A DNA stretch of 64,000 nt from Candidatus Borrarchaeum weybense (GTDB lineage: Archaea; Asgardarchaeota; Sifarchaeia; Borrarchaeales; Borrarchaeaceae), in the NCBI GenBank assembly GCA_019057385.1, contig JAHQJS010000004.1:676962-740961 (forward strand), given 5' to 3'. Both the position numbers and the translations under genes were made by a program. Position 1 is the stretch's first letter, and each line of letters begins with the position of its first letter. A model generated the notes under the pieces. It saw only the letters and a list, made by a program, of their open reading frames with translations, did not search any database and was not told where the DNA came from. Shown here in pieces: positions 16,514-42,440 of the stretch.

Positions 16514-17350
16514 CTATTGAGCCCGTGGGTATGAACCTAGGATATACAGGAACGACGTCAGTTCTTTGAGTTCCTCAAGAGCATCACTAAATTTTTTATC
16601 CTCAATGTGTCCTCCAAAATCCAGAAAGAAGATATAGTCACCAAATTTCTTTTTTGAAGGGCGTGATTCGATTTTTGTCAAATCTATATTCCTTTCCGCA
16701 AAGGGACGAAGCGTCTCGAAAAGAACGCCAGGTCTATTGATAATTCCATATACAATAGATGTTTTATCATTGCCTGTTGGTTTCTTTAGTTCTTTGCCCA
16801 CGATAACGAACCGCGTAACGTTGTTTTCCGCATCCTGAATATTTTCGTCTAAAATCTTGAGTTGATATTTTATCGCTGCTCTTTTTGACGTAATAGCCGC
16901 AGCATTTTCGTAGATGCCTCCAGCCACTTTAAGTGCCGCTTCAGTGGTAGAAGCTGCTGCTAATACTTCTGCCATTGGATAGTTTTTGTTGATGTATGAC
17001 TTACATTGTGAGAGTGCCTGTGGATGTGAGATAATGGTCGTTATTCTCTCAGATAGATCTGTAGCTAAAACATGGGCAATGGGAAGTAAGATCTCTCCAA
17101 CTACTTTGATATTTTCGTTAACAAGTGAATCCAATGTAGAAGTAACTGAACCCTGTAAAGAGTTCTCAATGGGGACTACTCCAAATTCGCAAATGTTTTT
17201 TGCAACAGAATTAACTACAGCTTCAATTGTTCTGTAAAACTTGAAATGGGTCTCATCAAAAACCGTTAATGCTGCAGCTTCAGTATAAGTTCCTCTAGGG
17301 CCGAAAACCCCAACTTTTTCATTTTCAGAAAAGACGATACCCCTGCATAT
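16514..17350 (-). CDS. pheA: Prephenate dehydratase with ACT domain; frame is open to about 17350 but lacks a canonical in-frame start
   Basis: Upstream of the annotated TTG (17134) the frame encodes VGVFGPRGTYTEAAA and GVVPIENSLQGSV; downstream SHPQALSQC, NVTRF, DLTKIESRP, LGSYP. Confidence 0.9.
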   Translation of the reverse strand: MCRGIVFSENEKVGVFGPRGTYTEAAALTVFDETHFKFYRTIEAVVNSVAKNICEFGVVPIENSLQGSVTSTLDSLVNENIKVVGEILLPIAHVLATDLSERITTIISHPQALSQCKSYINKNYPMAEVLAAASTTEAALKVAGGIYENAAAITSKRAAIKYQLKILDENIQDAENNVTRFVIVGKELKKPTGNDKTSIVYGIINRPGVLFETLRPFAERNIDLTKIESRPSKKKFGDYIFFLDFGGHIEDKKFSDALEELKELTSFLYILGSYPRAQ

Positions 17351-17417
17351 TCAATCCTCCGTATACAGCAGAAATATCGCATTAGGTTATCCCTTAAATA
17401 GTTTTCTAAGGGGATTA

Positions 17418-37735: not shown

Positions 37736-38422
37736 GTGCAAATCTGTGTAGCTGTCGGAGAAAAAAGTATAAACAAACTTTTCATGTTGATATCTAACGC
37801 TGAGTTTCAAGCAGATCTCATTGAATTTCGTCTAGATTATTTGGAGGCCCTCGATTATGGTGAATTAGAAAAACTATTAGAAAAAATGAAACTCCCTGTA
37901 ATTTTTACTGTCAGACGTAAGAACGAAGGTGGTAAATTTAAGGGGAGTGAAGAAGATCGTTTCAAGACTCTTAATAACTTAATTGATTTGCGCCCCGATT
38001 TCATTGACATCGAATTAAGTAGTCCATTTCTAAATGAGGATCTCGTAGATTCTGCAAAAAAGGTTGGAGTAAAAATCATTGGTTCATATCATTCATTTCA
38101 AGATACTCCACCAACCCATGTTCTCTTAAAGAAAATAGATATGGCGTACAGATTGGGTATTGATGTAGTGAAAATAGTAACTTATGCAAAAGAAATTGAA
38201 GATAACTTAATAATTTTAAGTTTACATAGCGCGGCGGAGAAATATCTCAGAGAAATGGAAATTGTAACATTCTGTATGGGCGAAAATGGTTTAATCTCTA
38301 GGGTATTATGTCCTTTATTCGGTTCAAAATTTACATTTGCATCATTCGGGGCGAATGTTACAGCGCCGGGTCAAATTAGCATTCAAAAAATGAGACGGAT
38401 TCAGAAATTGATAAGTGAATGA
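37736..38422 (+). CDS. aroD: 3-dehydroquinate dehydratase type I
   Basis: DLIEFRLD, IFTVR...EGG, DIEL, SYH.F..TP, VKIV, MGE.G..SR, APGQ. Confidence 0.93.
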   Translation: MQICVAVGEKSINKLFMLISNAEFQADLIEFRLDYLEALDYGELEKLLEKMKLPVIFTVRRKNEGGKFKGSEEDRFKTLNNLIDLRPDFIDIELSSPFLNEDLVDSAKKVGVKIIGSYHSFQDTPPTHVLLKKIDMAYRLGIDVVKIVTYAKEIEDNLIILSLHSAAEKYLREMEIVTFCMGENGLISRVLCPLFGSKFTFASFGANVTAPGQISIQKMRRIQKLISE

Positions 38423-39296
38423 AATGATCACGTCAGAAACACAGCTTTGTGGACTAATTGGACATCCAGTCAAACACTCTCTTTCTCCAATTATGCACAA
38501 CGCAGCATTCAAAGAAGTTGGCATAGATGATAAATACTGCTATTTAGCATTTAACGTCCTCGAAAGTGATTTAAAACAGGTGATAACTGCAGTTAAAACC
38601 TTAAACATCCGAGGATTGAATGTCACTATCCCTCATAAACTTGCTGTAATGGAATACCTTGATCTTATTGATACGACAGCACAAAGCATTGGTGCTGTTA
38701 ATACAATTGTAAATAATCAAGGATTTCTCAGAGGATACAACACAGATCTTCTAGGCGTGACAAATGCATTAAAGGAAGCCGAATTTGATCCAACAAACAA
38801 AAAAATTGTGATATTAGGTGCTGGTGGTGCAGCACGGGCAGCATCATTTTCAATCGGAAGAAAAGCAGCTGAACTCGTCATCGTGAACCGGTCAATAGAA
38901 AAAGCTAATGAGCTTTGTAACGACTTATTGGAAAGTGTGATTGTTGAAGCCCGATCTCGTGAGTTATCAGAAAAAATTCTAAGAGAAGAGGTCCAAAATG
39001 CAGATCTGCTCGTTAACTGCACATCAGTTGGAATGTGGCCCGATGCAAACCAAACATTACTTAAACGAGAAATTATCCCTGAAACTATCACAGTTTTTGA
39101 CACTGTCTATAACCCTCTTGAGACACAACTATTGAAAGATGCAAAAAAGGCAGGCGCAAAGACAATTTCTGGCTTAGCCATGTTTGTATGGCAAGGTGCT
39201 ATAGCATTTGAGTTGTGGACGGGAGCTAAAGCTCCTATTCAAAAGATGAAAGAAATTGTTAGTGAAAAATTGAAAGGCGGCAGAAATGAAAAATAA
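38415..39296 (+). CDS. aroE: Shikimate dehydrogenase
   Basis: GHPVKHSLSP.MHN, GLNVTIPHK, IGAVNT, GYNTD, GAGGAA, NCTSVGM. Confidence 0.95.
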   Translation: MNEMITSETQLCGLIGHPVKHSLSPIMHNAAFKEVGIDDKYCYLAFNVLESDLKQVITAVKTLNIRGLNVTIPHKLAVMEYLDLIDTTAQSIGAVNTIVNNQGFLRGYNTDLLGVTNALKEAEFDPTNKKIVILGAGGAARAASFSIGRKAAELVIVNRSIEKANELCNDLLESVIVEARSRELSEKILREEVQNADLLVNCTSVGMWPDANQTLLKREIIPETITVFDTVYNPLETQLLKDAKKAGAKTISGLAMFVWQGAIAFELWTGAKAPIQKMKEIVSEKLKGGRNEK

Positions 39297-39792
39297 TCTT
39301 GTAATCATAGGTTTCATGGCGACAGGAAAAACCAGTGTAGCACAAGCTCTAGCTAGCAAATTAGGAAAGGAATATGTAAGCACGGATGATTTAATTGTAA
39401 AAAAAGCTAACAAATATATCCCGAAAATCTTTGAAGATGATGGCGAGATCAAGTTTAGGGAACTTGAAATAGAAATAGTTAAAACAGTCTCAGAAATGGA
39501 CGATATCGTTGTAGATTGCGGTGGAGGCGTTGTTCTCAATTGGATAAATGTTGTAAGGTTGAAAGAGAAGGGAATTATAGTTTTACTAACAGCATCTGTG
39601 GAAAGGATATTGGAAAGGTCTTCTTCGAGTACAGAAAGACCTTTACTTAACGTTCAAAATACAAGGGAAAAAATTGTGGCACTATTGAAATTTCGAGAGC
39701 CTTTTTACGAAAAAGCTGCAGATGTGATTATTGATACAAACAACCTTAGTATTGATAATATTGTTGCACAAATCTTGGATTTCTTAAAATAA
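39286..39792 (+). CDS. aroK: Shikimate kinase, bacterial (NMP-kinase fold) type
   Basis: GFMATGKT, IF..DGE..FR.LE, GGGVV, RPLL, R...Y..AD. Confidence 0.93.
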   Translation: MKNNLVIIGFMATGKTSVAQALASKLGKEYVSTDDLIVKKANKYIPKIFEDDGEIKFRELEIEIVKTVSEMDDIVVDCGGGVVLNWINVVRLKEKGIIVLLTASVERILERSSSSTERPLLNVQNTREKIVALLKFREPFYEKAADVIIDTNNLSIDNIVAQILDFLK

Positions 39793-39808
39793 TGGACGTT
39801 AATAAAGC

Positions 39809-41071
39809 ATGAAAATAAAAATAACCCCCTCTGCGATTGAAGGACAAGTTGTAGCGCCTCCTTCCAAGAGTTACACTCACAGAGCACTAGTTTGTTCAGC
39901 GTTAGCTAACGGTGAGAGTAAAATAATTTCCCCACTAAACAGCGATGATACAGAAGCTACGATGGATTTATTGGAGAAACTCGGTGTTAAAATACGTGTT
40001 AAAGAAGACTTTTGGAATGTAAATGGTGGACAGTTACATCAACCTAAAGGAGATCTGTTTTGTCGAGAATCTGGAACAACTATGAGATTTATGACAACAA
40101 TTTGCTCACTAGTCAACGGAACCTGCCGATTGACTGGTGGAAGTTCACTATCAAAAAGGCCAATGAAACCATTGATTGACGGATTGAAACAACTAGGCGT
40201 TGAATGTTCCTCTGAAAGAGGATTTCCTCCTATAATTGTTAAAGGAGGGCTGATAGGTGGGCGCACAAAAATTCCGGGTAACATAAGTTCTCAATTTATT
40301 TCTGCTTTGCTTTTAGTAGCACCTCTAGCAAAAGACGATACAGAGATAATACTTACAACACCCTTAGAATCTAAGCCATATGTTCTGATGACAACAGATG
40401 CACAAAGACAATTTGGTGTTGAAATTGGGGCTTCTGAAGATTTAAGAAAATTTTGGATAAAAAAACAGGCTTACAAACCAATGATTTACAAAGTTGAGGG
40501 GGATTGGTCGAGTGCAGCATTGTTATTATCCTCTGGTGTATTGGCTGGGGAAATCGAGGCACAAAATTTGAATGCAAAAAGTTTACAAGCAGATAGAGAG
40601 ATCTTGAATGTGCTAAAAAAAATGGGAGCAGAAGCTATTTCAAAAAATGGGAGTATAAAACTAAAGAAATCCGAATTAGAAGCCCTCGAATTTGACGTAA
40701 CTAATTGCCCGGATCTATTTCCAATACTTACAGTTCTTTGTGCAGTTGCTGAAGGTAAAAGTAAATTAACGGGGATCAAAAGACTCAAGATAAAAGAATC
40801 GGATCGAATTGCTGCAATGAAAGAAGGTTTAGTGAGAATGAATGTAGATGTGAGCGAGGAGGAAAATAGTATTATAATTAAAACCTCAAAACCTAAGGGA
40901 GCGATAATAGATCCGAAAAACGACCACAGGATAGCAATGGCATTTGCTGTTTTATCGTTAGTTGCAGAGGGTGAGACTTTAATCCAAGATGCAGAATGTG
41001 TATCAAAATCATTTCCAAATTTTTGGGATGTAATGAAACACTTAGGTATGAATTTTGAGGAGATAACATGA
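39809..41071 (+). CDS. aroA: EPSP synthase
   Basis: PPSKSYTHR, ESGTTMRF, SSQFISALL, DWSSAA, KESDR, DHRIAM, KSFP. Confidence 0.96.
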   Translation: MKIKITPSAIEGQVVAPPSKSYTHRALVCSALANGESKIISPLNSDDTEATMDLLEKLGVKIRVKEDFWNVNGGQLHQPKGDLFCRESGTTMRFMTTICSLVNGTCRLTGGSSLSKRPMKPLIDGLKQLGVECSSERGFPPIIVKGGLIGGRTKIPGNISSQFISALLLVAPLAKDDTEIILTTPLESKPYVLMTTDAQRQFGVEIGASEDLRKFWIKKQAYKPMIYKVEGDWSSAALLLSSGVLAGEIEAQNLNAKSLQADREILNVLKKMGAEAISKNGSIKLKKSELEALEFDVTNCPDLFPILTVLCAVAEGKSKLTGIKRLKIKESDRIAAMKEGLVRMNVDVSEEENSIIIKTSKPKGAIIDPKNDHRIAMAFAVLSLVAEGETLIQDAECVSKSFPNFWDVMKHLGMNFEEIT

Positions 41072-42177
41072 GTAATAGCTTAGGTGAAAAATTTCGGATA
41101 ACAAGTTTTGGTGAGAGCCACGGAAAATGTGTGGGTGTCGTGATTGACGGTTGCCCTAGTGGTTTATCGTTATCCGAAGATGATATCCAACCTGAATTAA
41201 ACAGAAGACGTCCAGGTCAAAGCCAGATTACTACTAAGCGACAAGAAGAAGATCAAGTAGAAATTCTATCTGGCGTCTTTAATGGTTACACAACAGGTGC
41301 ACCAATTTGTATGCTTATTTGGAACAAAGACGTTGATTCTACTAAATATGAACTCTTTAGGGATGTACCTCGACCAGGTCATGCCGATTTCACTGCACGC
41401 CAAAAATATGGTGGATTCAACGATTATCGAGGCGGTGGTAGATTTTCAGGTAGAATAACCGCTAGTTTCGTGATGGCGGGTGCTGTAGCCAGAAAACTCC
41501 TAAGAGATGTTTTAAATGTAGATATTACTGCCCATACTATTGAAATAGGCGGGATCAAAGCAAAGAAAATAGAGGATATATCATTAATTAAGAAAAATGT
41601 TGAAAAAACTCCTATACGAACTGCTGATTTAGAAACTGCCGAAAAGATGATTGAACTAGTAATACAGGCAGAGAATGAAGGAGATAGTATAGGAGGAATA
41701 ATCGAATGTATAGTAACAAATGTTCCAATTGGTTTGGGTGAACCAATTTTTTCTTCTTTAGAATCAGACATTAGTAAAGCAATTTTTTCAATTCCTGCAG
41801 TTAAGGGAATAGAATTTGGTGCTGGTTTTCGTGTTTCAAGAATGAAAGGCTCTGAAAATAATGATAAATTTACCTTTAAAAATGGGCAAATTCTCACAAA
41901 AACAAATAATGCAGGTGGAATTTTAGGCGGTATATCAACTGGCATGCCTATTACATTTCGGATAGCGATCAAACCCACAGCTTCAATCACGAAAAAACAA
42001 GAATCCGTGAGTATTTCAGAGAAAAAAGAAACTGAACTTCAAATAGAGGGAAGACATGACCCATGTATAGTCCCAAGAGCTGTACCAGTTGTTGAATCCA
42101 TGACAGCGATGGTTTTAGCCGATCATGCGATAAGATATAATGTAATTCCGCCAGTAATCAGGAGGATGACTTCTTGA
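41068..42177 (+). CDS. aroC: Chorismate synthase
   Basis: FGESHG, RRRPGQ, RPGHAD, GGGRFSGR, GGILGGIS, GRHDPC. Confidence 0.96.
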   Translation: MSNSLGEKFRITSFGESHGKCVGVVIDGCPSGLSLSEDDIQPELNRRRPGQSQITTKRQEEDQVEILSGVFNGYTTGAPICMLIWNKDVDSTKYELFRDVPRPGHADFTARQKYGGFNDYRGGGRFSGRITASFVMAGAVARKLLRDVLNVDITAHTIEIGGIKAKKIEDISLIKKNVEKTPIRTADLETAEKMIELVIQAENEGDSIGGIIECIVTNVPIGLGEPIFSSLESDISKAIFSIPAVKGIEFGAGFRVSRMKGSENNDKFTFKNGQILTKTNNAGGILGGISTGMPITFRIAIKPTASITKKQESVSISEKKETELQIEGRHDPCIVPRAVPVVESMTAMVLADHAIRYNVIPPVIRRMTS

Positions 42178-42440
42178 GTTTAGAAGAATTCCGAGACGAA
42201 ATTAGAGATACTGATCTTAAAATATTGGATCTTATTAAAAAACGACTGGATATCGCTAAAAAGATAGGTTTGTATAAGAAAAAACACCAATATCCAGTTA
42301 AAAATGTAAAGGTAGAAGAAAAAGTAATAGAGCATGCGAAAAATCATGCTTTAAGTCTTGGAATACCTACCGAACTTGCAGTCAATGTAATTAAGTTGTT
42401 AATCGAATTTTCTGTGAAAATTCAACTACAGAATCTGTAA
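42174..42440 (+). CDS. Chorismate mutase type II
   Basis: LEEFRDEI...D..IL.LI.KRL....IG..K; overlaps aroC stop. Confidence 0.88.
   Translation: MSLEEFRDEIRDTDLKILDLIKKRLDIAKKIGLYKKKHQYPVKNVKVEEKVIEHAKNHALSLGIPTELAVNVIKLLIEFSVKIQLQNL

Follow-up and report, generated by a model that had tools for sequence, protein, structure and literature searches.

A conserved leader mini-ORF before pheA of the Asgard archaeon Borrarchaeum suggests a programmed +1 frameshift that may respond to phenylalanyl-tRNA supply

Introduction

How can a prephenate dehydratase (PDT) be synthesised from a reading frame that offers no canonical start codon until well inside the PDT domain? This question is raised by pheA of Borrarchaeum, which is located on the minus strand of the 64,000-nucleotide stretch of DNA analysed here (the window) and whose beginning is overlapped by a short mini-ORF in a different frame. 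A first, sequence-only reading of the locus had suggested that PheA is reached by a prfB-like +1 frameshift at a Phe codon and is thereby made when phenylalanine is scarce. Bacteria sense the supply of amino acids via leader-peptide attenuators and T-boxes; to our knowledge, little is known about the translational control of amino acid biosynthesis in Archaea.

The pheA reading frame and its missing start codon

The gene body and its first canonical start codon are located as follows:

Positions 16514-17332, minus strand: body of pheA in the +1 frame (UUU UCU GAA ... TAG 16516-16514), encoding prephenate dehydratase and an ACT domain.
Positions 17132-17134, minus strand: TTG, the first canonical in-frame start of the PDT frame, 66 codons past the proposed shift site.

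The identity of the gene product is supported by a Pfam profile search, which assigned residues 13-187 to the PDT domain (PF00800, 1.2e-57; profile positions 1-179 of 181), followed C-terminally by an ACT domain (PF01842, 5.7e-12). The frame is open for 278 codons on the minus strand, from a TGA at 17353-17351 to the TAG at 16516-16514, and reads ICRGIVFSENEKVGVFGPRGTYTEAA; it contains no ATG, GTG or TTG before the TTG at 17134-17132. Since position 1 of the PDT profile corresponds to the V of the VGVFGP motif, approx. 60 residues of the domain are encoded upstream of any canonical start. Gene callers begin at TTG 17134 or later, and the PheA proteins in databases are therefore truncated; those of the relatives comprise 209-245 amino acids and are shortened at the N-terminus in all versions.

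pheA provides the only PDT match in the genome (4.18 Mb, 8 contigs, 37% G+C). The window also contains aroD-aroE-aroK-aroA-aroC and a gene for a stand-alone chorismate mutase (85 aa) at positions 37736-42428 of the plus strand. The genes of this aro operon have ordinary SD-led GTG, ATG or TTG starts, and ordinary starts are likewise found for pheS, pheT, chorismate mutase and aroD. With the shikimate pathway present up to prephenate and a sole PDT, the cell needs pheA for phenylalanine.

As a side observation on the same branch of metabolism, no prephenate dehydrogenase (PF02153) was detected above the cut-off anywhere in the genome.

The leader mini-ORF and its sequence elements

Upstream of and overlapping with the start-less PDT frame, the following elements are found:

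Positions 17325-17348, minus strand: leader mini-ORF ATG CAG GGG TAT CGT CTT TTC TGA (MQGYRLF*), which defines the zero frame.
Positions 17356-17360, minus strand: Shine-Dalgarno (SD) sequence GGAGG, 7 nt 5' of the leader ATG, kept in all relatives.
Positions 17328-17333, minus strand: proposed shift site CUU_UUC, invariant in nine Borrarchaeum-type sequences and in the family of G005.
Positions 17339-17343, minus strand: internal SD-like GGGGU, ending 6 nt before CUU; GAGGU in relatives and GGAGG in the second family.
Positions 17368-17380, minus strand: GCGAUAUUUCUGC, the 5' arm of a 13-bp hairpin predicted by RNAalifold and RNAfold.
Positions 17393-17400, minus strand: TATA-like box TATTTAAG (TATAAAAA in relatives), seen in the sequence and in the alignment approx. 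20 nt 5' of the conserved leader.

The leader ATG is located at 17348-17346 and its stop codon TGA at 17327-17325; relative to this ATG, the PDT frame is displaced by +1. The sequence-only reading had described this arrangement, from the GGAGG with its 7-nt spacing to the peptide MQGYRLF*, correctly in every detail, and its statement that the PDT frame lies +1 to the leader ATG and lacks a start before the conserved N-terminal motifs is also borne out. Within the leader, CUU occupies 17333-17331, the overlapping UUU 17332-17330 and the Phe codon UUC 17330-17328 of the minus strand. From the leader start codon to its stop, CUU_UUC is the sole site at which re-pairing is possible.

The start of the leader appears as a typical initiation site of this organism. 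The 16S rRNA ends with ...GGAUCACCUCCU and contains the anti-SD sequence CCUCC, and GGAGG-N7-ATG is the preferred start context of the genome: of 155 such sites, 97 are followed by an ORF of 100 aa or more, the figure for other spacings being 25-50. In 13 cases, a GGAGG-N7-ATG site is followed by an ORF of fewer than 15 codons, and only at the pheA leader is this ORF overlapped by a long start-less frame in the +1 position. A composite motif consisting of SD, 4-9 nt, ATG or GTG, 12 nt and CTTTTC occurs once, at the pheA site, when both strands of the 4.18-Mb genome (8.4 Mb) are searched. A second genomic match to ATG-N3-RGG-N6-CTTTTC sits within the frame of another gene and was dismissed as chance. 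The TATA-like box is probably an archaeal promoter element, but its promoter function is only inferred.

The predicted hairpin (17334-17380) pairs the 5' UTR with leader codons 2-5 and places the SD and the AUG in its apical part. It is present in most Borrarchaeum sequences, and G/A and U/C (T/C) variants in its 3' arm preserve pairing. The 5' arm is missing in the relatives L020 and L016, and thus the hairpin is not essential to the shared design; the stem is absent from L020 and G005 and weak in L026. According to these predictions the hairpin is an accessory element at most, but it may partly explain the nucleotide conservation of the leader. In Borrarchaeum, the bases of the internal SD-like element double as the 3' arm, and so the conservation of this element could reflect the leader hairpin instead. 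The leader has no Rfam match, and no terminator-like site was found between leader and pheA.

A side observation concerns the 16S rRNA gene itself (G000:C5:332567-335232), which spans 2.67 kb as compared to the 1.48-kb model and thus appears to contain large insertions or introns.

Conservation among Borrarchaeum-type relatives

Nine sequences from eight other assemblies, encoding PheA proteins with 85-99% identity, were compared. They derive from the genome of 'Candidatus Borrarchaeum yapensis', an Asgard archaeon and the closest species representative, from five JGI/NCBI metagenome contigs and from three contigs that were reached via truncated database proteins. In all nine, the SD is followed by a leader-frame start codon and the sequence CAG RGG TAT CG(T/C) CTT TTC TGA. 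Comparing the pheA 5' ends of related genomes for a conserved CTT TTC TGA had been suggested as a check of the original proposal, and the sequence is invariant in the nine relatives. In L028, CGT is changed to CGC, which is synonymous in the leader frame. In L026, the leader starts with GTG, 8 nt past GGAGG, despite diverged upstream DNA. Upstream DNA also differs in L020, and yet exactly SD, leader and pheA are retained in both.

The PDT frame of the relatives is devoid of a canonical start before VGVFGP, with the exception of L019, in which a synonymous Val codon GTG occurs inside the motif. Judging from this alignment, it is in the leader frame, and not in the PDT frame, that a canonical start has been maintained by selection. 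A +1 shift at CTT TTC, as proposed in the sequence-only reading, thus remains the best fit to the compared sequences.

Between the TG of the start codon and TGA, only 2 of 23 alignment columns are variable, while in the coding sequence variation reaches 33% over all columns and 69% at third positions. Selection on the +1 frame is observed throughout pheA, with an overall dN/dS of 0.05-0.08 at a dS of 0.29-0.67 (same-length pairs). For the first 66 codons, i.e. those preceding the canonical start, the PDT frame gives a dN/dS of 0.08-0.15 and the other two frames give values >1. Translation of these start-less codons therefore takes place in the PDT frame.

The same data bear on the possibility that pheA is decaying or artefactual, due to a frameshift mutation or an assembly error. 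The truncated proteins produced by gene callers would be compatible with a broken gene, as would the failure to find a PDT in three genomes of the same genus, although these genomes are incomplete. Against this, the same layout is observed in assemblies obtained independently from seven or more samples, dN/dS stays at 0.05-0.15 with dS up to ~0.67, and the genome, which contains the complete shikimate operon, encodes no other PDT. As far as the aligned sequences allow a judgement, conservation has already largely refuted decay or artefact, and we give it almost no credence. The recurrence of the layout in independent assemblies also speaks against the sequencing or mutation indel that the sequence-only reading had kept as an alternative. 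The -1 slip at ATG AAA AAG, which had also been listed there, cannot be upheld since ATG 17322 is replaced by ATA in G004 and L022, by CTG in L023 and by AGG in L026.

Two further candidates were rejected. A homopolymer indel giving MKKVGVFGP from ATG 17322 would need an ATG that is lost in four relatives, and a third-frame ORF (ATG 17381, MRYFCC...) from which a -1 shift could start is either missing from L020 and L026 or shifted out of register there.

The metagenome contig L020 deserves separate mention: at L020:1313-1585, unrelated upstream DNA gives way to the pheA leader exactly at the SD. The position of this junction suggests that the mobile or functional unit consists of SD, 7-codon leader and pheA.

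A second family with the same leader design

G005 represents another family of the same class, and its PheA shows 55% identity. Its pheA is preceded by GAGGUGA-AAAG-AUG CGG AGG CCU GGC CUU UUC AAA GGA UAU UGA, and the PDT frame is again displaced by +1. Both families share the 7-nt spacing between SD and AUG, CUU as codon 6, UUC as codon 7, a Ser codon (UCA/UCU) as the first codon of the +1 frame and an SD-like RGG that ends 6 nt before CUU; in G005, the internal SD-like element is a perfect GGAGG. The intervening leader codons and the position of the stop codon differ, the G005 stop being located four codons after UUC. As the composite motif occurs only once in the two strands of the Borrarchaeum genome, its recurrence before orthologous pheA genes is not due to chance.

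This comparison helps to decide which codon pair matters. The frame could instead change at the very end of the leader, when Phe-tRNA occupies UUC in the P site and UGA has entered the A site, so that the speed of termination and not the supply of Phe-tRNA would be sensed. Two forms are conceivable, a -2 slip to UUU (...LFSENEK) or an antizyme-like skipping of the U of UGA (...LFENEK). UGA directly follows UUC in all Borrarchaeum-type sequences without exception, the run of four U permits perfect -2 re-pairing from UUC to UUU, and stop codons are the usual slow A-site codons at known +1 sites (PMC5009743). G005, however, has AAA after UUC and its stop four codons later but retains CUU UUC, and the +1 re-pairing of UUC to UCU would be poor. 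We therefore consider a shift at the leader end unlikely. UUC is kept while the stop moves, and what both families have in common is thus a P-site CUU combined with an A-site Phe codon. The earlier idea that a Phe codon, and not a stop codon, serves as the trigger is supported by G005 to this extent, whereas the sensing of phenylalanine remains an inference.

The PDT frame of G005 does, however, contain an upstream GTG, located within the SD, and a TTG, and a conventional start can therefore not be excluded for this single sequence. No further G005-type relatives were found in the protein collection or in 400 Asgard genomes. PDT is present in 131 of these 400 genomes, nearly always as a chorismate mutase-PDT fusion, and the fusion genes whose 5' ends were read have ordinary ATG starts, except for L010 from G023. 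The leader design is limited to Borrarchaeum and G005, and the PDTs of these two are most closely related to each other.

Translation without a frameshift, or joining at the RNA level

An explanation that dispenses with frameshifting is that PheA synthesis begins at some non-canonical codon of the PDT frame itself (for example ATC 17338 in Borrarchaeum; CUG, GTG or TTG in G005), with the mini-ORF acting as a competing regulatory uORF. Unusual starts seem to occur in this and in other Asgard genomes: a DUF362-like gene of the same genome has ATT at GGAGG-N7 where its relatives have ATG, and the Loki-type chorismate mutase-PDT gene L010 has only ATA after its SD. ATC is, moreover, conserved two codons before the T-run, with CTG at the same place in G005. 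The spacing of these codons, though, is far from favourable: ATC/CTG is separated from the main SD by 17 nt and from the internal SD-like element by 1 nt, as opposed to the 7-nt optimum. ATA 17350, which had been named as a possible PheA start, fails because the codon is replaced by GTA in L019 and L020 and by AGG in L026. In addition, L026 and L020, despite their changed upstream DNA, have kept or restored a leader-frame ATG or GTG 7-8 nt from GGAGG. Together, this makes a non-canonical start improbable in our view.

Both cases are observations in their own right. The first is located outside the window (G000:C4:483786-485360, minus strand; locus L074) and encodes a DUF362/COG2768-like Fe-S protein; its ATT follows 7 nt after GGAGG, four same-genus relatives have ATG (MPEKV...), and an out-of-frame ATG is present 4 nt upstream in the Borrarchaeum genome. 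It is probably a case of a non-canonical ATT start in this genome. The second (L010:1400-1480 in G023, another Asgard family) is a chorismate mutase-PDT fusion with 89 upstream codons that lack ATG, GTG and TTG. Here, GAGGTGA is followed by ...ATA TCA GAA GAA, while sister genomes use ATG, and L010 may represent an ATA start or another case of recoding.

The frames could also be joined at the RNA level, either by a BHB (tRNA-type) intron of 3n+1 bases or by a base lost through editing or polymerase slippage. The region is A/U-rich and able to form small hairpins. Every 10-69-nt excision that joins the ATG to the PDT frame was enumerated and scored in eight sequences for a 4-bp central helix with two 3-nt bulges, flanking helices, conservation and retention of the VGVFGPRGT motif. 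No BHB intron at the pheA leader met these criteria in the eight sequences, and the best candidates depended on G-U pairs and were not conserved. Past the T-run, the substitutions follow the codon pattern of the PDT frame (E-N/T/K-E/K/D-K/R-V), so that no more than 22 nt would remain for an intron. The known cases of transcriptional slippage need a longer run than the four U present here. Joining at the RNA level is thus considered very unlikely.

Proposed mechanism

With these alternatives weighed, we favour, with moderate confidence, a programmed +1 frameshift at CUU_UUC that gates the synthesis of PheA and probably responds to the supply of Phe-tRNA; no RNA or protein data are available, and the proposal is derived from genome comparison alone. 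According to this model, ribosomes would bind to the strong SD, initiate at ATG 17348 and synthesise M-Q-G-Y-R-L. CUU, bound by Leu-tRNA, would then occupy the P site, and the Phe codon UUC would be exposed in the A site. If charged Phe-tRNA arrives promptly, Phe would be added, UGA reached and a 7-residue peptide released without production of PheA. If Phe-tRNA is scarce, the paused ribosome could allow Leu-tRNA to re-pair from CUU to UUU in the +1 direction. Ser-tRNA would subsequently read UCU and translation would continue in the PDT frame, yielding the predicted product MQGYRL-SENEKVGVFGPRGT... The slip itself and the identity of the slipping tRNA are inferred.

The slip might be aided by the SD-like GAGGU/GGAGG sequence 6 nt upstream of CUU, which would reach the genome's preferred 7-nt spacing once the slip has occurred. 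By analogy, we infer that the gain from 6 to 7 nt is comparable to the effect of the strained 3-nt spacer in prfB; that the internal SD-like element stimulates the shift is likewise an inference.

In its more specific form, the model describes a switch that senses phenylalanyl-tRNA, in which the Phe codon at CUU_UUC decides between termination after seven codons and a frame shift leading to the enzyme. We put this forward tentatively, as a possibility that is still somewhat in doubt, since the dependence on Phe-tRNA is inferred. If the ribosome slips only when Phe-tRNA is scarce, PheA would be made mainly upon phenylalanine shortage. In the long ORFs of the genome, the codon pair CUU-UUC is observed 292 times with 290 expected (1.01) and is thus not avoided, which would suggest that the pair alone is not strongly shift-prone, although this test carries little information. 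UUC is not rare, with 15.2 occurrences per 1000 codons. Using ARAGORN and Rfam, 26-32 tRNA genes were detected, including only tRNA-Leu(UAG) for leucine and no tRNA-Phe, but detection is poor in this intron-rich genome.

The tRNA search also revealed a tight array of five tRNA genes at positions 19436-19895 of contig C1, which is unusual for an archaeon and may correspond to a mobile element or to contamination.

Comparison with known systems

The bacterial prfB gene for release factor 2 contains the site AGG GGG UAU CUU UGA C, at which an autoregulatory +1 shift occurs. The proposed pheA site resembles it in several respects: a P-site CUU is followed by U, such that Leu-tRNA is able to move onto UUU and thereby enter the frame of the gene body; a purine-rich SD-like element is located upstream; a slow A-site codon would serve as the sensor; and the gene body is in the +1 frame, while the zero frame soon ends at UGA. 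There are also clear differences. The A-site codon of pheA is the Phe codon UUC instead of a stop codon, and UGA comes only after it, by one codon in Borrarchaeum and by four codons in G005. The SD-like element lies 6 nt from CUU in both pheA families as compared to 3 nt in prfB, and the shift would occur at codon 6 of a mini-ORF, so that the whole enzyme is encoded in the new frame. Whereas the prfB product decodes the sensing codon, PheA supplies the amino acid, and feedback would be only indirect via Phe and Phe-tRNA. Finally, the host of pheA is an archaeon.

In the yeast element Ty1, +1 shifting takes place at CUU_AGG_C, where the slow codon is constitutively rare due to a low-abundance tRNA-Arg. 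As in Ty1 and the 'hungry codon' shifts of Gallant, Leu-tRNA would slip from CUU in front of a slow A-site sense codon, and the supply of a single aminoacyl-tRNA would be decisive. In contrast to Ty1, the pheA codon UUC is common and would become slow only upon Phe shortage. The +1 shifts of prfB and Ty1 are driven by slippage from CUU to UUU or UUA in front of a slowly decoded A-site codon, and 'hungry' codons increase such slippage (PMC5009743). No natural hungry-codon shift that makes a useful trans-frame product has been known (Atkins et al. 2016, PMC5009743).

An incidental +1 frameshift occurs in the pheL-pheA system of Enterobacteria, where E. coli pheL ends with UUC_CCC_UGA (Gurvich et al. 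2011, PMC3082878). Both arrangements have a short leader ORF before pheA whose translation reports, or in Borrarchaeum would report, the supply of Phe-tRNA, a Phe codon near the leader end and +1 shifting, in Borrarchaeum as proposed, close to the leader stop. Different from pheL, which has runs of Phe codons and a terminator/antiterminator, the Borrarchaeum leader contains one Phe codon and no terminator. The shift in pheL leaves pheA unaffected; the Borrarchaeum leader overlaps with pheA, and the shift would be required for the enzyme.

Antizyme (UCC_UGA_U) provides a further parallel, with a metabolite-responsive and obligatory +1 shift that yields the main product and forms part of a negative feedback loop. 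It differs in being eukaryotic, in the action of polyamine on termination at a stop codon and in its downstream pseudoknot. In Archaea, only the -1 shift of fucA1 is established as a cellular programmed frameshift, and no cellular +1 shift has been proven (PMC8211752). A published description of a frameshift-gated pheA was not found in the literature.

If the model is correct, pheA would represent the first natural hungry-codon frameshift that switches on a biosynthetic enzyme and would thereby answer the open point on the natural use of hungry-codon frameshifting (PMC5009743). It would also be the first cellular +1 programmed frameshift in Archaea, beside the -1 shift of fucA1 (PMC8211752), and would constitute a compact and portable amino acid sensor of approx. 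45 nt. Standard annotation would then be shown to truncate or miss such genes, which affects metabolic reconstructions of Asgard archaea because pheA is otherwise scored as broken.

Search for further genes with the same device

The genome was searched for a second gene with the same device, via CTT_T sites and via SD-ATG mini-ORFs overlapped by start-less long ORFs, and none was found. One candidate sister leader, the mini-ORF ATG CTT TAA upstream of leuS, was rejected because its ATG is ATT in three relatives.

The leuS region nonetheless shows some features of its own. The mini-ORF (L050:1380-1500 in G000:C5, 5' of leuS) is not conserved, with ATT found, for example, in G002 and G004, and G004 carries an insertion of ~340 nt at its position. 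A conserved in-frame ATG is located 12 codons 5' of the apparent start of leuS.
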